Origin: a virus
Lineage: Duplodnaviria; Heunggongvirae; Uroviricota; Caudoviricetes
Length of the DNA stretch: 22,259 nt
Virus record (IMG/VR): IMGVR_UViG_2703718804_000008
Strand: one strand, 5' to 3'
Shown here: positions 3,143-12,659 of the stretch, in pieces
Numbering within the stretch: the first letter of the stretch is position 1
Layout of the letters: every line of letters starts with the position of its first letter
Position numbers and translations under genes: made by a program
The notes under the pieces: generated by a model
What the model was told of the DNA's origin: nothing
Database searches by the model: none
What the model saw: the letters and a program-made list of their open reading frames with translations, nothing else

Positions 3143-3367
3143 ATGCATACAGTTTCTGAAAATCAGTGCGGTATATACGCATTACTGCTGCAACAGGCCA
3201 GAACCGAAGCACAGGCCGACGCTGCGACGCGCTTTTCTTCTCATCTTGACGCCATGATTCTCCACATCACAAAGGCGGAGTTATCCCGCGTGGAGATAGT
3301 CGAGCTGCTCAGTCAGGAGTCGGAAAAATTTCACAATATCGGATTGTCTCGCGGGGAGGTGCTTTGA
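3143..3367 (+). CDS. Hypothetical early protein (P2 orf80 position)
   Basis: 74 aa, ATG start with GGAGAAAG upstream; stop overlaps the next start. Confidence 0.6.
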
Positions 3368-3669
3368 TGTCCTGTTCTCGTTCAATTGTATTACTGAATA
3401 ACGCCTTAAAAATCGCCGTTATGGAAAATGGCGATTTGTCTCTTATTCAACTTGGTCTTGATAAAGAAAAGCGCGACATAACTGAATCTGTTATCGCGAT
3501 TTATCAGAGCGAATTAAACCTCCTGTCTGATGTGATCAATTTACTTGTGAAACGCGCTGTATTTCACAAGCAAATTTCCTCAGTGGATGAACTGACAAAA
3601 TTAACGACAGAACTCGCCAGCTATTGCGCTGATGAATTTAAGAAACTGAACGACAAAAGGAACTGGTAA
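3367..3669 (+). CDS. Hypothetical early protein (P2 orf81 position)
   Basis: The track ORF starts at TTG 3364; the first ATG is at 3367, overlapping the upstream TGA. 100 aa. Confidence 0.6.
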   Translation: MSCSRSIVLLNNALKIAVMENGDLSLIQLGLDKEKRDITESVIAIYQSELNLLSDVINLLVKRAVFHKQISSVDELTKLTTELASYCADEFKKLNDKRNW

Positions 3670-3893
3670 TGCCGGACAACGTAGATTTCATTCAGGAACA
3701 ACAGGCTGAATTACTGGAGCGCCAGATTAACGCGGCAAGGGTAAAACATTGCTGTGCTTCTGCGCTGGTTTGCGAAGAGTGTGATGCGCCAATACCTGCT
3801 GCCCGTCGTGCGGCTTATCCGTCAGCCACGCGTTGTGTTTCCTGCCAGTCAGTCTTTGAAGCAAAAAACAAGCATTACCGGAGAATGGCATGA
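3669..3893 (+). CDS. TraR/DksA-type C4 zinc-finger protein (P2 orf82 position)
   Basis: 74 aa; four Cys in two CxxC pairs (CEEC ... CVSC) near the C-terminus; TAATG overlap with the upstream gene. Confidence 0.65.
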   Translation: MPDNVDFIQEQQAELLERQINAARVKHCCASALVCEECDAPIPAARRAAYPSATRCVSCQSVFEAKNKHYRRMA

Positions 3894-4165
3894 GTATTCG
3901 TATCGAAATTGGCGAACGTTATGTCGTTACCAGTGACAGCTTTCAGTTTATTCTCCACGAGAAAAAGAGAGCGGAAAGCGGTAAAAACGCCGGTCAGGAA
4001 TGGCTGTCGGTGGTTGGTTATTACCCGAAATTAAGCCAGCTCGTTTCCGGCCTGATGCATCACGATATTCTGACCGGAAGCGCAAAGTCTTTTGCTGATT
4101 TAAACGCGCAGGTTGAGCAACTCAGCAAGCGTTGTTCAGAGGCTTTTGGCTCATATGGCCGTTAA
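3890..4165 (+). CDS. Hypothetical early protein (P2 orf83 position)
   Basis: 91 aa, ATG start overlapping the upstream stop (ATGA). Confidence 0.55.
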   Translation: MSIRIEIGERYVVTSDSFQFILHEKKRAESGKNAGQEWLSVVGYYPKLSQLVSGLMHHDILTGSAKSFADLNAQVEQLSKRCSEAFGSYGR

Positions 4166-6149
4166 AGCCTCCGGGCGTTTTGTCCCTCCGTCAGCATTTG
4201 CCGCAGGCACCGGTAAGGCGTTTACCGGTGCTTATGCATGGAACGCGCCACGCGAGGCTGTCGGGCGCGAAAGACCCCTTACACGTGACGAGATGCGTCA
4301 GGTGCAAGGTGTTTTATCCACGATTAACCGCCTGCCTTACTTTTTGCGCTCGCTGTTTACTTCACGCTATGACTACATCCGGCGCAATAAAAGCCCGGTA
4401 CACGGGTTTTATTTCCTCACATCCACTTTTCAGCGTCGTTTATGGCCGCGCATTGAGCGTGTGAATCAGCGCCATGAAATGAACACCGACGCGTCGTTGC
4501 TGTTTCTGGCAGAGCGTGACCATTATGCGCGTCTGCCGGGGATGAATGACAAGGAGCTGAAAAAGTTTGCCGCCCGTATCTCATCGCAGCTTTTCATGAT
4601 GTATGAGGAACTCTGCGATGCCTGGGTGGATGCGCATGGCGAAAAAGAATCGCTGTTTACGGATGAGGCGCAGGCGCATCTGTATGGTCATGTTGCTGGC
4701 GCTGCACGTGCTTTCAATATTTCCCCGCTTTACTGGAAAAAATACCGTAAAGGGCAGATGACCACGAGGCAGGCATATTCTGCCATTGCCCGCCTGTTTA
4801 ACGATGAGTGGTGGACTCATCAGCTTAAAGGCCAGCGTATGCGCTGGCATGAGGCGTTACTGATTGCTGTCGGGGAGGTCAATAAAGACCGTTCTCCTTA
4901 TGCCAGTAAACATGCCATTCGTGATGTGCGTGCGCGCCGCCAGGCAAATCTGGAATTTCTTAAATCGTGTGACCTTGAAAACAAGGAAACCGGCGAGCGC
5001 ATCGACCTTATCAGTAAGGTGATGGGCAGTATTTCTAATCCAGAAATTCGCCGGATGGAGCTGATGAACACCATCGCCGGTATTGAGCGTTACGCCGCCG
5101 CAGAGGGTGATGTGGGGATGTTTATCACGCTGACCGCGCCGTCAAAGTATCACCCGACACGTCAGGTCAGAAAAGGCGAAAGTAAAACCGTCCAGCTAAA
5201 TCACGGCTGGAACGATGAGGCATTTAATCCAAAGGATGCGCAGCGTTATCTCTGCCGTATCTGGAGCCTGATGCGCACGGCATTCAAGGATAATGATTTA
5301 CAGGCCTACGGTTTGCGTGTTGTTGAACCACACCACGACGGAACGCCGCACTGGCATATGATGCTTTTTTGTAATCCACGCCAGCGTAACCAGATTATTG
5401 AAATCATGCGTCGCTATGCGCTCAAAGAGGATGGCGACGAAAGAGGAGCCGCGCGAAACCGTTTTCAGGCAAAACATCTTAACCGGGGCGGTGCTGCGGG
5501 GTATATCGCAAAATACATCTCAAAAAACATCGATGGCTATGCACTGGATGGTCAGCTCGATAATGATACCGGCAGGCCGCTGAAAGATACTGCTGCGGCT
5601 GTTACCGCATGGGCGTCAACGTGGCGAATTCCGCAATTTAAAACGATTGGCCTGCCGACAATGGGGGCTTACCGTGAACTACGCAAATTGCCTCGCGGCG
5701 TCAGTATTGCTGATGAGTTTGACGAACGCGTCGAGGCTGCTCGCGCTGCCGCAGACAGTGGTGATTTTGCGTTGTATATCAGCGCGCAGGGTGGGGCAAA
5801 TGTCCCGCGCGATTGTCAGACTGTCAGGGTTGCCCGTAGCCCGTCGGATGACGTTAACGAGTACGAGGAAGAAGTCGAGAGAGTGGTCGGCATTTACGCG
5901 CCGCATCTCGGCGCGCGTCATATTCATATCACCAGAACGACGGACTGGCGCATTGTTCCGAAAGTTCCGGTCGTTGAGCCTTTGACTTTAAAAAGCGGCA
6001 TCGCCGCGCCTCGGAGTCCTGTCAATAACTGTGGAAAGCTCACCGGTGGTGATACTTCGTTACCGGCTCCCACACCTTCTGAGCACGCCGCAGCAGTGCT
6101 TAATCTGGTTGATGACGGTGTTTCGAATGGAATGACCCGGAGGTTGTGA
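4155..6149 (+). CDS. A: Rolling-circle replication initiator (P2 gpA-like HUH endonuclease)
   Basis: HUH-type motif HHDGTPHWHMMLF and two-tyrosine motif GYIAKYISKN (phiX174 gpA-like YxxKY). The track ORF opens at TTG 4113; the first ATG is 4155 (664 aa). Start uncertain. Confidence 0.9.
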   Translation: MAVKASGRFVPPSAFAAGTGKAFTGAYAWNAPREAVGRERPLTRDEMRQVQGVLSTINRLPYFLRSLFTSRYDYIRRNKSPVHGFYFLTSTFQRRLWPRIERVNQRHEMNTDASLLFLAERDHYARLPGMNDKELKKFAARISSQLFMMYEELCDAWVDAHGEKESLFTDEAQAHLYGHVAGAARAFNISPLYWKKYRKGQMTTRQAYSAIARLFNDEWWTHQLKGQRMRWHEALLIAVGEVNKDRSPYASKHAIRDVRARRQANLEFLKSCDLENKETGERIDLISKVMGSISNPEIRRMELMNTIAGIERYAAAEGDVGMFITLTAPSKYHPTRQVRKGESKTVQLNHGWNDEAFNPKDAQRYLCRIWSLMRTAFKDNDLQAYGLRVVEPHHDGTPHWHMMLFCNPRQRNQIIEIMRRYALKEDGDERGAARNRFQAKHLNRGGAAGYIAKYISKNIDGYALDGQLDNDTGRPLKDTAAAVTAWASTWRIPQFKTIGLPTMGAYRELRKLPRGVSIADEFDERVEAARAAADSGDFALYISAQGGANVPRDCQTVRVARSPSDDVNEYEEEVERVVGIYAPHLGARHIHITRTTDWRIVPKVPVVEPLTLKSGIAAPRSPVNNCGKLTGGDTSLPAPTPSEHAAAVLNLVDDGVSNGMTRRL

Positions 6150-6433
6150 GGGCGCTCAGAAGCGCATTAAAACACGGCCTGAGAAGACCAAACCGTCAGC
6201 AAAGAAACGGAAGCCCCTTAAAACCACATGAAATTGCACCATCGGCCAGACTGACCCGGTCGGAAAGAATGCAAATCACCCGTATCCGCGTTGACCTTGC
6301 TCAGAACGGTATCAGGCCGCAGCGATGGGAGCTTGAGGTGCTGGCGCGTGGGGCAACGGTAAGCTATTGTGGGGAAAAATTTACGTATCCGGTCGCTGAT
6401 GAGGGGGCGGGATTTGTAGTATGTAAATGGTGA
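6146..6433 (+). CDS. Hypothetical protein, GTG start overlapping the A stop (P2 orf91 position?)
   Basis: 95-aa ORF starting with GTG in a GTGA overlap with the A stop codon; arginine-rich; same GC-rich composition as the backbone. No motif recognised. Confidence 0.4.
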   Translation: MRALRSALKHGLRRPNRQQRNGSPLKPHEIAPSARLTRSERMQITRIRVDLAQNGIRPQRWELEVLARGATVSYCGEKFTYPVADEGAGFVVCKW

Positions 6434-6683
6434 AGATAAGATGGGTTTTTGTCTGTAACGCATTGTTTTATATGGTTATATTTGATTTTTTGTAACGTGT
6501 GTTCATGTTTTCTTTGCTATGATTCATACTACTGCTATAGATGGCTAAAGATATAGGTTGTTGCTTAAATGTATATAGATAATTAAACGCCTTAATTTTT
6601 GATGAGATGTGTCATAAAGTGGAGTCTGTATGGCATAATTTTATGGGGCATGACATTTATACCATTCTTAAAAAGGAGATTAT
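6434..6683 (+). promoter_or_regulatory. AT-rich upstream region of the cargo cassette (probable own promoter plus RBS)
   Basis: 250 bp of very AT-rich non-coding DNA; AAGGAG at 6673-6678 five nt before the ATG at 6684; TGGCATAAT (extended -10-like) at 6631-6639. No convincing -35 found. Confidence 0.3.
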
Positions 6684-8351
6684 ATGCTGATAACTTTCTC
6701 AGGACAAAATTATAAGGCATACGAGAGTTTTAAGTTGTCTTTAAAGCCATTGACAATATTATTAGGGGCAAATAGTTGTGGGAAAAGTGCATTAATTAAC
6801 TCTTTGTTGATGTTTTCTCAGTCTGTTGATTCAATGTCATTGTCTGATTCTGCTTTAAGGTTGAATGGGCCTAAAGTTGGGATGGGAGAAGCATTAAATA
6901 TAATAAAAAATAAAGATGACTCCAAAACACTTAGTTTTAGTTTTGATTTTTCTGATAATACAGTGGTTAAAAATGGCATTGATACACTGAGGAGAGAAAC
7001 TTTAGAATCATTTGCTATGATTATGCGATTCACAGTGCAAACGGTGAAAAATAATGACGCTTTGGTTACGAAAGCCAATGATTTAATAAATGAGGCTTCG
7101 AATGCGATCGTTAACTTTGACGAATTTGAGGAAGCTGAGTTAAAGGTTATCGCTGATAAGTTATGTCAATTACTTTTGCTTTTTAGGGAGGCGGGTGATA
7201 ATATCACATTTAGTCGTGCGACCTCAGAAAATTTACGCAAATTTATATATGAATGTCCATTAAAGAGAATAAAGGATTGTCTAACTAAAGTTATTTCCAT
7301 TTCAGGAAATAAATTGTCGGCTTCTAAGATAAGCTATGATTTCAAATATGATAAAAATAAAGGGGTGATAAAAGTTTCGAGGCTTGTTCTTTTAAATAAG
7401 AATGATGAAAAGATAGTTGAGCTATTACCAAAGAAGAATAATGTCGTTGTATTATCAGATGTTATCCCTCAAGAAGTGTTTAGAGGATGTCAGTCAGATA
7501 TCTTAGAAATCATCAATCCTTATTCGCTGGGACTGTTCCCTGTCAATAATGGGCGTGGTTTTTATGTTTTTTTTGGTAACTCTTATAATCCTGTTGTTAA
7601 TTTTTTATCACATGTTGTTTCTTTGGGTGTATTAATGCTTTCAAAAATGTTTGATGGTGAAAATGTTAATCACGTCAGCCCATTGAGAGCATTTCCTCAG
7701 CGATATTATCTATTAGACAAAACAGTCAATCATGCGCAGTTAAATTCTGCCGATGGATCTGAGTTAGCGGAGATCTTGAAGAAAAATACAAAAATAACAG
7801 AAAATATAAATCTTCTTCTGGCTGAATTTAATTTGGCTGTTGATATAGTTAAAGTTAATGACATAATTCATAAAATTGTTATAAACCAAGATGCTGTTAA
7901 TTTAGAGTTGACAGATGTGGGGTTTGGAATATCACAAGTATTGCCTGTCTTGGTTCAAGCTTATTTGTCACCAAAGGGTTCGATTACAATAATAGAACAA
8001 CCAGAAATACATTTGCATCCTAAAATGCAGGCATGGTTAACGGACGCATTAATTAAAATATCCATGCAAGAAAAGAAAGTATTTATTATTGAAACCCATA
8101 GCGATGCTTTAGTTAGACGAATTAGATTAAGAATTGTTGATGAATCGAGTGAACTTACAGAGGATCATGTTGCAATCTACCATCTTGAGCGCGATGAAGA
8201 GGGAACATCAACATTGCTGAATAGGGTGGCTGTAAATTCTGATGGAGATATCACATGGCCAAATGAATTTATGGATGTTGAGATTCAGGATACAATTAGA
8301 ATACAGGAGTTAAAGATACAGAAAATAATGAACTCAAAGGGGGTTCATTGA
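6684..8351 (+). CDS. OLD/ABC-type ATPase (AAA_15/AAA_21-like), candidate defence-system sensor/motor
   Basis: 555 aa. Walker A GANSCGKS at residues 28-35; Walker B/D-loop IIEQPEIHLHP at ~436-446; H-loop FIIETHSD at ~465-472. About 400 aa separate Walker A and B. Very AT-rich. Confidence 0.85.
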   Translation: MLITFSGQNYKAYESFKLSLKPLTILLGANSCGKSALINSLLMFSQSVDSMSLSDSALRLNGPKVGMGEALNIIKNKDDSKTLSFSFDFSDNTVVKNGIDTLRRETLESFAMIMRFTVQTVKNNDALVTKANDLINEASNAIVNFDEFEEAELKVIADKLCQLLLLFREAGDNITFSRATSENLRKFIYECPLKRIKDCLTKVISISGNKLSASKISYDFKYDKNKGVIKVSRLVLLNKNDEKIVELLPKKNNVVVLSDVIPQEVFRGCQSDILEIINPYSLGLFPVNNGRGFYVFFGNSYNPVVNFLSHVVSLGVLMLSKMFDGENVNHVSPLRAFPQRYYLLDKTVNHAQLNSADGSELAEILKKNTKITENINLLLAEFNLAVDIVKVNDIIHKIVINQDAVNLELTDVGFGISQVLPVLVQAYLSPKGSITIIEQPEIHLHPKMQAWLTDALIKISMQEKKVFIIETHSDALVRRIRLRIVDESSELTEDHVAIYHLERDEEGTSTLLNRVAVNSDGDITWPNEFMDVEIQDTIRIQELKIQKIMNSKGVH

Positions 8352-8352
8352 C

Positions 8353-9354
8353 ATGTATTGTGCAGTGTGTTTGTGTCCTGATTTTGTTGCGGCTAATATT
8401 TCTGATATTAATTTATTTAGTGGTTTTTTTATTGGAACCATTGTTAATGGTGAAAATCAGTTGATTTTAGATGCTGATGAAAAAATCCGTTTGGGCTATT
8501 TGAAATCTTGTAAAAATAACAAGGATTCTTTTTATCTGCTTCAGAAATGGGAGGCTGAATTATCTAAAGCTTCTTCAGGTAAAATATTGCTTGCACCAGT
8601 GAGTAATAGTACTGATGATATTAAGGATATAGTTGTTTGTGCAGTTGCTAACGCAGCTACCACCTTTGATAAACATATTGTGGTATTAGACAATAATAGT
8701 TACTCTGGATATGTTGATGAATTAGTTAGGCAAAGAGTTAATTTGTTAAATCTTAATAGTATAAGTTTAATATCAAAGGAGGATAGGGTGCAGCGTCCTT
8801 TGAATTTTATAAAGTTTGATAGCGATTTGTCTTGGGTGCTTCAAAGACTGGGGCGACGCTCTGCTAAAGGATATGGCGAAGATGATTTTAATGATTTTAT
8901 ACGAGATATGTTATTAGCTAAAAATTATGAGGTAAAAGATCAAACTCGAGAAGGAGAGTCTCAATCGGGGAAAAAAGCCGGTGAGTTAGATCTTGTTATT
9001 GAAGATAGAGGAGAACTGTTTGCTATAATAGAAGCCTTGATTTTAAACTCTTTAGATCAAGCTAACATATTAAAGCATTATTCAAAGTTAATTGATAACT
9101 ATAATCCTATTCATGTCAAAAGGTTGTTTTTAATTGCTTATTATACAGGTGCAAAATTCGATGCCTGGTGTGAAAGATATATTGAGTATCTAAAGGGGAT
9201 TACTTCGGTAGATATTGGTGTGGAATCTCATCAGATAGTTGAGGTTAAAGAAGTGGATACCCCGTACATAGGCTTAAGAAAAATTGAACATCATTTTAGA
9301 TATGCGGGGGAGCACTATTTTTGTATCCATTATGCAGTCAAAATGGCTCGGTGA
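8353..9354 (+). CDS. Hypothetical partner protein of the ATPase (candidate effector)
   Basis: 333 aa; ATG one nt after the ATPase stop, so translationally coupled; same AT-rich composition. Segment ELDLVIEDRGELFAIIEAL is loosely PD-(D/E)xK-like but lacks the canonical Lys. No confident domain call. Confidence 0.75.
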   Translation: MYCAVCLCPDFVAANISDINLFSGFFIGTIVNGENQLILDADEKIRLGYLKSCKNNKDSFYLLQKWEAELSKASSGKILLAPVSNSTDDIKDIVVCAVANAATTFDKHIVVLDNNSYSGYVDELVRQRVNLLNLNSISLISKEDRVQRPLNFIKFDSDLSWVLQRLGRRSAKGYGEDDFNDFIRDMLLAKNYEVKDQTREGESQSGKKAGELDLVIEDRGELFAIIEALILNSLDQANILKHYSKLIDNYNPIHVKRLFLIAYYTGAKFDAWCERYIEYLKGITSVDIGVESHQIVEVKEVDTPYIGLRKIEHHFRYAGEHYFCIHYAVKMAR

Positions 9355-9366
9355 TGTTTAAGATGA

Positions 9367-9392
9367 ATGCACCTATAGGGTGCATCATTTTG
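9367..9392 (+). terminator. Putative intrinsic terminator of the cargo operon
   Basis: Hairpin ATGCACC-TATAG-GGTGCAT (7-bp stem) followed by CATTTTGCATGTTT, 13 nt after the partner gene stop. AT-rich stem, so weak. Confidence 0.35.
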
Positions 9393-9491
9393 CATGTTTA
9401 AATATGTTCTCTATGTATGTGCGCTAGGCTTGACTGGCGCGCTTATACTATGTTTACGCAACTGCATTAAAACTGACCCACGAAGCGGGCG

Positions 9492-9510
9492 GGCGAGGCG
9501 GGGAAAGCAC
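9492..9510. other. cos: cos site (19-nt cohesive-end sequence, P2-type)
   Basis: GGCGAGGCGGGGAAAGCAC matches my recollection of the P2 cohesive end; it lies between the early region and Q, as in P2. Confidence 0.55.
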
Positions 9511-9652
9511 TGCGCGCTGGCGGTGGTGCTGATTTTATTTTTTCAGCGTCTGAGCGCGTCGTGACGGCGTTTAGATTGTTCGCCGGGGCGTTGGTGTGTC
9601 TGCGGGATTTTTTGTGCGGTGATGAGCGTGTGAGGGCGTGATGACGGGGTGT

Positions 9653-9676
9653 AAAAAAGCCGCCCGCAGGCGGCGA
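9653..9676 (-). terminator. Intrinsic terminator downstream of Q (minus strand)
   Basis: GC-rich hairpin GCCGCC-CGCA-GGCGGC at 9659-9674, followed on the minus strand by a run of six T (A6 at 9653-9658 on plus), a few nt past the Q stop. Confidence 0.5.
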
Positions 9677-9679
9677 TGT

Positions 9680-10714
9680 TCAGCCGTTGTCAGTGTCCAG
9701 TGAGTAGTTTTTAAAGCGGATGACCTCCTGACCGAGCCAGCCGTTTATCTCGCGGATCCTGTCCTGTAACGGGATAAGCTCATTGCGGACAAAGACCTTT
9801 GCCACTTTCTCAATATCACCCAGCGACCCGACGTTCTCCGGCTTGCCGCCCATCAACTGAAAGGGGATGCGGTGCGCGTCCAGCAGGTCAGCGGCGCTGG
9901 ATTTTTTGATATTAAAAAAATCGTCCTTCGTTGCCACTTCACTGAGGGGGATAATTTTAATGCCGTCGGCTTTCCCCTGCGGGGCATAGAGAAACAGATT
10001 TTTAAAGTTATTGCGGCCTTTCGACTTCACCATGTTTTCGCGAAGCATTTCGATATCGTTGCGATCCTGCACGGCATCGGTGACGTACATGATGTATCCG
10101 GCATGTGCGCCGTTTTCGTAATACTTGCGGCGGAACAGCGTGGCCGACTCATTCAGCCAGGCAGAGTTAAGGGCGCTGAGATATTCCGGCAGGCCGTACA
10201 GCTCCTGATTAATATCAGGCTCCAGCAGATGAAACACGGAGCCGGGCGCGAAGGCTGTCGGCTCGTTGAAGGACGGCACCCACCAGTAAACATCCTCCTC
10301 CACGCCACGACGGGTATATTTGGCCGGTGAGGTTTCCAGTCTGATGACCTTACCGGTGGTGCTGTAACGCTTTTCCAGAAACGCATTACCGAACACCAGA
10401 AAATCCAGCACAAAGCGGCTGAAATCCTGCTGGGAAAGCCACGGGTGCGGGATAAACGTTGAAGCCAGAATATTACGTTTGACGTAAATCGGTGAGCTGT
10501 GATGCACGGCAGCACGCAGACTTTTTGCCAGACCGGTAAAGCTGACCGGTGGCTCATACCATCTGCCGTTACTGATGCACTCGACGTAATCCAGAATATC
10601 ACGGCGGTCGAGTACCGGCACCGGCTCACCAAAGGTGAATGCCTCCATTTTCGGGGCGCTGGCAGTCATTGTTTTCACCGCTGGCTGCGGTGTTTTCCCT
10701 TTTTTCTTACTCAT
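9680..10714 (-). CDS. Q: Portal protein (P2 gpQ-like)
   Basis: 344 aa, ATG start; start overlaps the P stop (ATGA); first gene after cos on the minus strand. Confidence 0.95.
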   Translation of the reverse strand: MSKKKGKTPQPAVKTMTASAPKMEAFTFGEPVPVLDRRDILDYVECISNGRWYEPPVSFTGLAKSLRAAVHHSSPIYVKRNILASTFIPHPWLSQQDFSRFVLDFLVFGNAFLEKRYSTTGKVIRLETSPAKYTRRGVEEDVYWWVPSFNEPTAFAPGSVFHLLEPDINQELYGLPEYLSALNSAWLNESATLFRRKYYENGAHAGYIMYVTDAVQDRNDIEMLRENMVKSKGRNNFKNLFLYAPQGKADGIKIIPLSEVATKDDFFNIKKSSAADLLDAHRIPFQLMGGKPENVGSLGDIEKVAKVFVRNELIPLQDRIREINGWLGQEVIRFKNYSLDTDNG

Positions 10715-12486
10715 CAGTAAAACTCCAGAATGGTGGATGTCAGCGGAGTGCTGATACCGGCGGTGAGTGGCTCATTTAACAGGGCGTGCATGGTCGCCCA
10801 GGCGAGGTCGGCGTGGCTGGCTTCCTCGCTGCGGCTGGCCTCATAGGTGGCGCTGCGTCCGCTGCTGGTCATGGTCTTGCGGATAGCCATGAACGAGCTG
10901 GTGATGTCGGTGGCGCTGACGTCATATTCCAGACAGCCACGGCGGATAACGTCTTTTGCCTTGAGCACCATTGCAGTTTTCATTTCCGGCGTGTAGCGGA
11001 TATCGCGCGCGGCGGGATAGAACGAGCGCACGAGCTGGAACACGCCGACACCGAGGCCGGTGGCATCAATACCGATGTATTCGACGTTATATTTTTCGGT
11101 GAGTTTGCGGATGGATTCAGCCTGGGTGGCAAAGTCCATGCCTTTCCACTGGTGACGCTCAAGTATTCTGAATTTGCCACCGGCCACCACCGGCGGTGCC
11201 AGCACCACGCATCCGGCGCTGTCGCCACGGTGTGACGGGTCGTAACCAATCCATACCGGACGTGAGCCGAACGGATTGGCGGCAAACGGAGCATAGTCTT
11301 CCCATTCTTCCAGCGTGTCGACCATGCAGCGTTGCAGCTCCTCGAACGGGAACACCGACGCCTTGTCGTCAACAAATTCACACATGAACAGGTTTTTAAA
11401 ATCGTCGGCGCTGTTTTCACGTTTGAGCTGCTCAATGTCGAACAGCGTGCAGCCGTCTTTCAGGGCGTCCTCAATGGTGACAATCTGCCGCCACTGGCCG
11501 TCCGCACAGAGAAGCCCACCGGCAAGGGCGTTATGACTGACGTCGATTTCCACGCGTTCGGCGGCGCTGGCGCGTCCCCGGTTAAACAGTTCACCCGACC
11601 AGAACGGGTAGGCGTCGTGCGCCAGTGTGGACGGGGTGGAGAAATAGGTCGAGCGCAGGTGACTCTGTGAGGCCATACCTGATGCCACCTTACGCAGTAC
11701 CTGAAAATTCGGGATCCAGAAAATCTCGTCGACGTACAGGTCGCCGTTATGGCTCTGCGCGGTGTTGGAGTTGGTGCCGAGAAAAATCAGTTTTGCGCCG
11801 TTATTGCCCAGGACAATTGGGTCACCGGTCAGGTCAACGTCAACCAGCCGGGCAAAGGCGATGATGTATTCGCGGAACACATACGCCTGCGTTTTACTGG
11901 CCGACAGAAAAATCTGGTTATGACCGGTTTTCAGGGCGCGCAGCAGCGCCTCGCGGGAAAAATAAAACGTCGCGCCAATCTGGCGGGATTTCAGGATATC
12001 GCGGATGCGGTGCTCAAGCCCTGCGCGATACCAGTGCAACTGATATTCGAAAGACTGCTCAAAGAAAATCTGCTCCAGCTTTTCGATGGCCTCGTCACTG
12101 AAAAAATTCTTTTTCGGTTTGCGACGCCCGCCTTTGTTGCGGTTAGCGACGTTCGGATTAAGGTCTGCCTCGTTGCCGGTCTGACTGTAACGGTTGACCC
12201 GTGCCAGTCGTTCAATCTGGCGTCCGAGCAGGTCAATTTCCTTGAAGTCACCGCCGGTTTTCTGCGGTTTGATGATGAGCTGGGTCAGCCGCGCTTCCAG
12301 ACTCATTTCGACACGGCTGATGGGGGCAACGCTGTCCCAACCGTCGCGCTGTTTCCAGCTCTGCACCGTCGGGCGTTTCATCTGCAACATGGCGGCAATC
12401 TGCGGCACGGAAAATCCCTGCCAGTACAGCAGCGCCGCCTGACGACGCGGGTCGTGTAAAAGAGTGGTGTCTGTGGTGATGGTCAT
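10714..12486 (-). CDS. P: Terminase large subunit (P2 gpP-like)
   Basis: 590 aa from the first ATG (12486); the track ORF extends to an upstream TTG at 12516. Cotranscribed with Q, divergent from O. Confidence 0.95.
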   Translation of the reverse strand: MTITTDTTLLHDPRRQAALLYWQGFSVPQIAAMLQMKRPTVQSWKQRDGWDSVAPISRVEMSLEARLTQLIIKPQKTGGDFKEIDLLGRQIERLARVNRYSQTGNEADLNPNVANRNKGGRRKPKKNFFSDEAIEKLEQIFFEQSFEYQLHWYRAGLEHRIRDILKSRQIGATFYFSREALLRALKTGHNQIFLSASKTQAYVFREYIIAFARLVDVDLTGDPIVLGNNGAKLIFLGTNSNTAQSHNGDLYVDEIFWIPNFQVLRKVASGMASQSHLRSTYFSTPSTLAHDAYPFWSGELFNRGRASAAERVEIDVSHNALAGGLLCADGQWRQIVTIEDALKDGCTLFDIEQLKRENSADDFKNLFMCEFVDDKASVFPFEELQRCMVDTLEEWEDYAPFAANPFGSRPVWIGYDPSHRGDSAGCVVLAPPVVAGGKFRILERHQWKGMDFATQAESIRKLTEKYNVEYIGIDATGLGVGVFQLVRSFYPAARDIRYTPEMKTAMVLKAKDVIRRGCLEYDVSATDITSSFMAIRKTMTSSGRSATYEASRSEEASHADLAWATMHALLNEPLTAGISTPLTSTILEFY

Positions 12487-12659
12487 GAATACCTCGCCGT
12501 GATGAATACACGGCAAGGCTACTGAGTCGCGTCCCGCGATTCGCTAAGGTGCTGTTGTGTCAGTGATAAGCCATCCGGGACTGATGGCGGAGGATGCGCA
12601 TCGTCGGGAAACTGATGCCGACATGTGACTCCTCTAATCACTATTCAGGACTCCTGACA
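12487..12659. promoter_or_regulatory. Divergent late-promoter region (P_P leftward, P_O rightward)
   Basis: 173-bp gap between divergent P and O. Partial dyad GTGA-N9-TCAC at 12625-12641. No exact TGT-N12-ACA activator site found. Confidence 0.4.

Follow-up and report, generated by a model that had tools for sequence, protein, structure and literature searches.

What does the 333-amino-acid (aa) protein encoded at positions 8353..9354 (+ strand) of virus record IMGVR_UViG_2703718804_000008 do for the Escherichia coli P2-like prophage that carries it, and what part is played by the ATPase gene directly upstream? The window, by which the whole 22,259-nucleotide (nt) stretch of DNA analyzed here is meant, holds the two genes as a small island between prophage genes. 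The protein is recorded in RefSeq as WP_062878016.1 and annotated ‘hypothetical protein’, and its exact sequence is found on more than 200 public contigs, always under the name hypothetical. An initial annotation, made from the sequence, described it as an ATPase partner of unknown fold with a degenerate nuclease-like motif and Cys/His-rich termini, and as either a divergent nuclease or a different kind of effector. The present analysis points to an ATPase-controlled nuclease effector belonging to an anti-phage system of two genes, which would be part of the cargo in the hotspot of a P2-like prophage, a reading to which a probability of roughly 60% is given for the chain as a whole.

The ATG-to-TGA open reading frame (ORF) is a real gene. 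Phage P2-EC5 carries the same pair, with 88% nt identity, as ORF555 and ORF333, both ‘hypothetical’. Compared with its P2-EC5 copy, the 333-aa gene has a synonymous divergence (dS) of 0.44 and a ratio of nonsynonymous to synonymous divergence (dN/dS) of 0.15 (0.19 in the N-terminal half and 0.10 in the C-terminal half), which is the basis for taking it as a gene; the corresponding dN/dS of the ATPase is 0.05. Literature searches on P2-EC5, ORF555 and ORF333 brought up nothing useful.

The full-length AlphaFold model of the protein has a mean pLDDT (predicted local distance difference test) score of 86.4 and, despite this high value, a predicted template modeling (pTM) score of only 0.55, indicating no confident contact between two domains. 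The N-terminal domain (residues 1–145; 8353..8787, + strand) has a PIN-like Rossmannoid fold that lacks the acidic quartet of PIN nucleases, and is proposed to serve as an adaptor to the ATPase. The C-terminal domain (residues 146–333; 8788..9351, + strand) has a PD-(D/E)xK, or restriction-endonuclease-like, fold and is the proposed nuclease. Because both folds are recognizable by fold search, and are assigned with high confidence, the protein can no longer be described as being of unknown fold; the separate, inactive PIN-like half had been overlooked in the initial annotation.

The fold search with the full-length model matched the C-terminal part to OkrAI (score 8.2), BglII (8.1), BstYI (8.0) and BamHI (8.0), with further matches to CdiA-CT, McrC, SwaI, NucC, HamA and EcoRI. 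A model of residues 146–333 alone, made with 50 more diverse sequences, reached a pLDDT of 88.8 and a pTM of 0.86, and placed PD-(D/E)xK nucleases first: BamHI (8.4), BstYI (7.8), OkrAI (7.5), CdiA-CT EC869 (7.4), BglII (7.4), CinB (6.9) and McrC (6.5). The αβββαβ core fold of these enzymes is present in the model. Profile matches are weaker: the sole Pfam match of the 333-aa protein is a sub-threshold hit to PDDEXK_4 (residues 179–251, E 0.073), and the matches of individual family members are likewise below threshold, to PDDEXK_4 at E 0.02–0.07, DUF6602 at 8e-4 (3 of 25 members) and HSDR_N and HSDR_N_2 at 0.01–0.05. Neither HNH nor TOPRIM was matched in profile searches, in agreement with the initial reading of the sequence.

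The conserved core of the nuclease-like domain spans 8878..9102 (+ strand, as for all residues given below), with residues counted over 113 diverse copies of the domain. E176 (8878–8880), D196-Q197 (8938–8943), D213 (8989–8991), E227 (9031–9033) and Y250 (9100–9102) are invariant (113/113 or 109/109), while H242 (9076–9078; 112/113) and K245 (9085–9087; 111/113) are nearly so, as are N180, G201, S203, G210 and Y263. In the models, D213 lies at the start of β2 and E227 within β3, the canonical metal-ligand positions, and E176 lies on the preceding helix α1. The nuclease-like motif had been proposed from the string ELDLVIEDRGELFAIIEAL, which is indeed found at residues 211–229. The motif exceeds a chance resemblance: its outer acidic residues, D213 and E227, withstand comparison, being invariant among 35 close homologues as well as in the diverse set, whereas E217 (R/E/K) and D218 (K/D/N) vary. 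The fold, the weak PD-(D/E)xK-clan profile matches, these two invariant residues and the genomic context together favor a divergent PD-(D/E)xK-type nuclease effector paired with an ATPase, and the searches turned up no well-characterized non-effector fold lacking conserved catalytic residues. The Gly/Ser-rich β1–β2 loop (residues 199–210, REGESQSGKKAG; 8947–8982, + strand), with the consensus GxSxSGKxAG, is strongly conserved in the diverse set, yet has a pLDDT below 50–65 in both models; it bears a superficial likeness to a phosphate-binding loop.

The N-terminal domain has a PIN fold whose best structural matches include the known inactive PINs Chp1, SMG5 and Nmd4. D40, Y49, W66, G76, K77, N114 and Y117 are invariant in the 35 close homologues. 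Among 30 diverse two-domain members, only D40 (8470–8472, + strand) and Y49 (8497–8499, + strand) remain invariant, with C8-P9 (8374–8379, + strand), located at the end of β1 where active PINs carry their first Asp, nearly so. The site of three to four carboxylates that characterizes PIN nucleases is absent: D40 is the only invariant acid, β3 is followed by no acidic residue, and D10, D105 and D112 vary. The domain is therefore not to be filed as an active PIN nuclease. C8-P9, D40 and Y49 may mark a surface for binding and not a catalytic site. A profile search with this domain against a set of 5.8 billion proteins returned a single fragment; a local hmmsearch does recover the known members.

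The gene upstream (6684..8351, + strand) encodes an NsnB-like ATP-binding cassette (ABC) ATPase of 555 aa and of the OLD type (Pfam AAA_15, 2e-23; AAA_21, 9e-18). The ATPase motifs can be read from the sequence: Walker A (G28ANSCGKS35), Walker B (IIE438Q439PE), a signature reduced to G413FGISQ and an H-loop (ETH472SD). Of the PADLOC models, NsnB matches best (2.1e-52) and aligns up to residue 536 of the 555, followed by HEC-03B (7.7e-42) and PDC-M55A (4.5e-41), with AriA (1.4e-27), GajA and PtuA well behind these three. The ATPase homologue from Pseudomonas likewise matches NsnB (1.1e-53).

The two genes are tightly joined. A Shine–Dalgarno-like AGGGGG (8338..8343, + strand) lies inside the 3' end of the ATPase gene, whose TGA stop codon (8349–8351) is separated by a single base from the ATG of the partner at 8353, a spacing that indicates translational coupling. 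Homologous loci have an equally tight junction, ranging from an 8-nt overlap to a 2-nt gap. Just past the partner’s stop codon is a terminator-like hairpin (9367..9385, + strand), a pattern match only, from a consensus scan, which probably marks the end of a two-gene operon. An ATPase homologue is found directly upstream of the partner in all 13 readable loci of the family, from Escherichia, Serratia, Enterobacter, Leclercia, Pantoea, Dryocola and Pseudomonas; a locus search with the close-family alignment gave seven loci. The pair resides in P2-like prophages in Escherichia and Serratia, in an integrase/AlpA/primase island in Pseudomonas, and at chromosomal sites in Enterobacter, Leclercia, Pantoea, Dryocola and Pseudomonas, and the flanking genes (portal/gpA, resolvase, LysR, QueA, integrase and transporters) are unrelated between loci. 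The constancy of the pair amid such different flanks identifies, as far as gene order can, the two genes as the functional unit. Three chromosomal loci, from Enterobacter roggenkampii and gut metagenomes, have a full-length partner but an ATPase called at only 371–410 aa, beside an IS1 InsA fragment; the system may be decaying, or have been re-started, in these copies.

Within the window, the pair (6684–8351 and 8353–9354, in the same orientation) makes up a 3-kb island of 32–36% GC, with a value of 33% for the cassette, set in prophage sequence of 52–57% GC, between the replication endonuclease gene gpA (4113–6433) and the portal gene Q (9680–10714, − strand). Between the cassette and the portal gene, the sequence contains the 19-mer GGCGAGGCGGGGAAAGCAC (9494–9512, strand not assigned), which we take to be the cohesive end (cos) of phage P2, and this position places the cassette in the cos-proximal hotspot. 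The gpA–gpQ interval adjoining cos is a P2 hotspot for anti-phage systems (Rousset et al., PMC9122126). The tables of that study list arrangements of AAA_15/AAA_21 plus a hypothetical protein at the P2 hotspot; their accessions could not be tied to the 333-aa protein.

The nuclease-like domain reaches far beyond this pair. A profile search of 1.84 billion cluster representatives yielded 1,116 proteins at E ≤ 1e-3, 766 of them at E ≤ 1e-10, and no Pfam model covers the domain. Among the matches listed, most correspond to the C-terminal domain only (117, versus 79 that resemble the full-length protein), and the domain is usually found at the C-terminus. One architecture consists of proteins of about 300 aa with unrelated N-termini. 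Seven proteins have the domain joined to LRR-Roc-COR GTPases, where a single protein sometimes contains two copies, or to NACHT/nSTAND3 STAND nucleoside triphosphatases (NTPases). On a gut metagenome contig (2957–6909), a 1015-aa gene matches the PADLOC model for TmtA of Tiamat over the model’s first 610 positions (E 3e-127), and its end is overlapped by the gene of a distant relative of the domain, 302 aa long and differing at the N-terminus; this pair lies between hsdS and hsdR of a type I restriction-modification operon and is followed by a KAP NTPase. To judge from these sequences, the domain is distributed in the manner of a shuffled effector module of conflict systems. In Carboxylicivirga linearis (Bacteroidota), a 344-aa relative of the domain is flanked by genes of 949 and 961 aa without Pfam match (3615–10454 of that locus), which may represent another multi-gene system with the same effector.

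Menshen, the NsnA–NsnB–NsnC system, was reportedly described by Millman in 2022. Its NsnC subunit has an inactive PIN (inPIN), which an NsnB tetramer is predicted to clamp with its C-terminal helices, and a variable C-terminal domain that acts as the toxin and for which 15 families are listed: nine BECR families, DUF4276, RloB, PB-PLD1, DUF4160, PB-UF1 and a DUF2103-like family (Li et al., PMC12065111). In layout and type of ATPase, Menshen is the nearest system to the present pair. The window ATPase is closer to NsnB than to any other PADLOC model, and shares some of its peculiarities: the Walker B lacks the DE dyad, the signature is GxG, and an Arg replaces the Gln of the Q-loop. The partner, encoded directly downstream, has the layout of NsnC, with an inactive PIN-like N-terminal domain and a nuclease-type C-terminal domain, a likeness of fold and gene order only. 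However, the partner has no sequence match to the PADLOC NsnC models, its PD-(D/E)xK domain falls outside the 15 NsnC families, and Pfam reports no DUF3696 tail in the ATPase at E ≤ 1. Nor is there a gene for NsnA (ParB-DUF262 plus ParBDB) in the window or in the 13 family loci.

HEC-03 (Hma-embedded candidate 03) comprises an ABC ATPase and a PIN protein without NsnA, and both genes were needed for phage defense (bioRxiv 10.1101/2024.01.29.577857). In its logic, the window pair is as close to this validated system as to Menshen: it likewise has two genes and no ParB component, and its ATPase matches the HEC-03 ATPase model. However, the HEC-03 partner is a VapC-like PIN taken to be the active effector, with no second domain described, whereas the PIN-like domain in the window lacks the catalytic acids and is joined to a PD-(D/E)xK domain; the PADLOC model for the HEC-03 partner gives no match at E ≤ 1. 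The pair is thus best classed as a variant of the Menshen/HEC-03 kind and not as a member of either, being kept apart from Menshen because it lacks NsnA and has an uncatalogued effector, and from HEC-03 because of the presumably different role of the PIN and the failure of the partner model.

More distant parallels exist with PARIS (AriA–AriB), Septu (PtuA–PtuB) and Gabija (GajA), in which an oligomeric OLD-type ABC ATPase also holds or regulates a nuclease. PARIS, moreover, is found in P2/P4 hotspots, and its AriA models match the window ATPase. In contrast to the PD-(D/E)xK domain of the window, the effectors of these systems are TOPRIM (AriB, GajA) or HNH (PtuB) proteins, and the window ATPase is nearer to NsnB. 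Membership in PARIS was rejected on the absence of any DUF4435 or TOPRIM match in Pfam and PADLOC and on the different partner fold; Septu, Gabija, AbiL and PD-T4-4 were set aside because their partner folds do not fit and their ATPase scores are weaker. Type II restriction-modification does not fit either: there is no methyltransferase in the cassette or the window, and the homologous partner loci carry the ATPase only. Within the BamHI/BglII/BstYI/OkrAI branch, to which the C-terminal fold is nearest, sequence identity to the window domain is only 9–11%. Unlike those enzymes, the window domain has no methyltransferase partner and has a hydrophobic residue, not Glu or Gln, at the third motif position; its family has DQ, HxxK and Y motifs of its own and a C-terminal three-stranded extension.

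The gene content of the window is that of an E. coli P2-like prophage, with an integrase (583–1596, − strand), the terminase P gene (10714–12516, − strand), and repressor C, Cox, B, scaffold O and capsid N. The cassette region is 100% identical to that of E. coli ARS-C301. The gpA gene is split into overlapping frames (4113–6149 and 6146–6433) and is labeled ‘frameshifted’ in RefSeq for the identical ARS-C301 prophage, and the DUF5405 gene upstream of it (3364–3669) carries the RefSeq label ‘internal stop’. The prophage is probably defective, while the defense cassette remains intact. A lipoprotein-like ORF (MKKIAAISLISIFIMSGC...) at 1–318, just beyond the integrase end, presumably belongs to the host flank and thereby marks where the prophage is attached. 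No RNA families were found in the window by Rfam.

How might the pair work? The C-terminal domain would be a metal-dependent PD-(D/E)xK nuclease with a remodeled active site made up of E176, D213 and E227, with K245 and H242 replacing the usual lysine. By analogy with NsnC of Menshen, the dead PIN-like domain would dock this effector onto an oligomer of the NsnB-like ABC ATPase, which would keep the nuclease silent until infection is sensed. A phage cue would then shift the nucleotide state of the ATPase, and ATP binding or hydrolysis would free or activate the nuclease to degrade nucleic acid, most likely DNA, as the closest folds are endonucleases acting on double-stranded DNA. Phage replication would stop and the infection would be aborted, possibly at the cell’s cost. 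The adaptor role and the substrate are put forward with less confidence than the folds or the defense role.

Several observations weigh against this scheme. The 333-aa protein has no above-threshold match in Pfam, NCBIfam, PADLOC or PHROGs, and profile searches of the PDB, with the close-family set and with the diverse set of C-terminal domains, gave no meaningful sequence relative. DUF3696, the tail by which NsnB binds the inactive PIN, was not reported in the ATPase by Pfam at E ≤ 1. The conserved C8-P9/D40/Y49 patch suggests that ‘mere adaptor’ may be an incomplete description of the N-terminal domain. A further point concerns the lysine of the β3 (D/E)xK motif, which is missing, as the initial annotation had noticed: residue 229 is Leu (83), Met (14) or Phe (11) in 108 of the 113 domains, and residue 230 is variable (K/N/R) and Ile in the window copy. 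Being shared across the aligned family, the absence reads as a family trait and not as decay. BamHI, with Glu, and BglII, with Gln, are working enzymes of this branch without the lysine. In the present family, its function may have been taken over by the near-invariant K245, together with H242, on helix α2.

The missing lysine also lends itself to a different explanation, in which the restriction-endonuclease fold is dead and the pair binds without cleaving, for example to block phage DNA or to sequester a phage protein. The predicted disorder of the β1–β2 loop would fit this as well. However, E176, D213 and E227, at metal-ligand positions, are absolutely conserved even between members that are very distant from one another, which is difficult to account for if the domain does not catalyze; relatives lacking the lysine do function, and the domain takes the effector position in STAND and ROCO proteins, all of which makes a dead fold improbable. 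Much the same standing is given to the proposal that the PIN-like domain is the real effector, an RNase as suggested for the PIN of HEC-03, and that the C-terminal domain is a non-catalytic sensor or binder of nucleic acid. Such an RNase would have to act without the four-carboxylate site and in spite of the resemblance to inactive PINs, and a mere binder would not be expected to keep six invariant polar or acidic residues or to be shuffled among other NTPase systems as effectors are. The initial annotation had also raised a metal site formed by the two termini, and a Zn site of this kind, central to function, has been considered. The strings in question are present (CAVCLCPD at residues 3–10 and HHFRYAGEHYFCIHY at 313–327), so that the window copy offers C3, C6 and C8 together with H313, H314, H321, C324 and H326, of which C6, H314 and H326 are conserved in the close family and C8 more widely. 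The overall composition, however, is unremarkable, with 7 Cys and 8 His among the 333 aa, and the enrichment is mostly lineage-specific. Conservation is lacking at C3, C324 (L/V/I elsewhere), H313 and H321; C6 and H314 are kept only among close relatives, position 314 being V/K/I in the domain family at large. The only two residues that are widely kept, C8 (in at least 90% of the 30 diverse two-domain members) and H326 (33/45), lie in separately folding domains that show no confident contact in the full-length model, and hundreds of proteins have the C-terminal domain without the N-terminal one. By conservation, a shared metal site is therefore unlikely, and a central role for it is very improbable.

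The last alternative concerns the purpose of the cassette. Instead of defending against phages, the pair might be a toxin–antitoxin-like addiction module or serve the maintenance of a prophage or satellite. AAA_21 is named after the AbiEii toxin family, the cassette has been kept although the prophage is probably defective by its gpA frameshift, and the hotspot also holds partition systems and toxins, with five of eight cloned P2 candidates giving no defense (Rousset et al., PMC9122126). The ATPase nevertheless groups with the validated defense ATPases NsnB, HEC-03 and AriA, the pair, in the manner of mobile defense cassettes, is found in P2 prophages as well as in chromosomal islands and an integrase/AlpA/primase island, and the effector domain recurs in immune-type architectures. 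A function other than defense therefore seems rather unlikely, and a defense role is considered likely. The ATPase-controlled nuclease thus remains the preferred reading.

A bolder proposal, unlikely if taken as a whole, joins these strands in another way. The C-terminal domain would not be a conventional DNase but define, within the restriction-endonuclease fold, a large branch that has not been catalogued and whose catalytic center has been rebuilt, recognizable by the signature E, DQ, D, E, HxxK, Y and a conserved flexible GxSxSGK loop, with no β3 lysine. Its substrate would be a different one, such as a nucleotide or a particular RNA or tRNA, and it would serve as a common plug-in effector for at least four unrelated classes of NTPase sensor: NsnB-like ABC ATPases, Roc-COR GTPases, STAND/NACHT NTPases and Tiamat-like proteins. 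Sensing in the P2 cassette would fall to the ABC ATPase, and the pair would amount to a minimal, NsnA-independent Menshen.

On the preferred reading, a ‘hypothetical protein’, first deposited as ORF333 of P2-EC5, becomes a concrete, testable candidate for an immune system: a module of ABC ATPase and nuclease that is carried, in Enterobacterales and Pseudomonas, on P2-like prophages and on mobile elements of other kinds. The Menshen/HEC-03 design, in which an ATPase and a dead-PIN adaptor are combined with a swappable effector, would thereby be extended in two directions, by a PD-(D/E)xK class of effector that is not listed for Menshen and by an arrangement that does without a ParB-type sensor. 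A model for the uncatalogued nuclease-like domain, with its 1,116 cluster representatives, would improve the annotation of many immune-type proteins.

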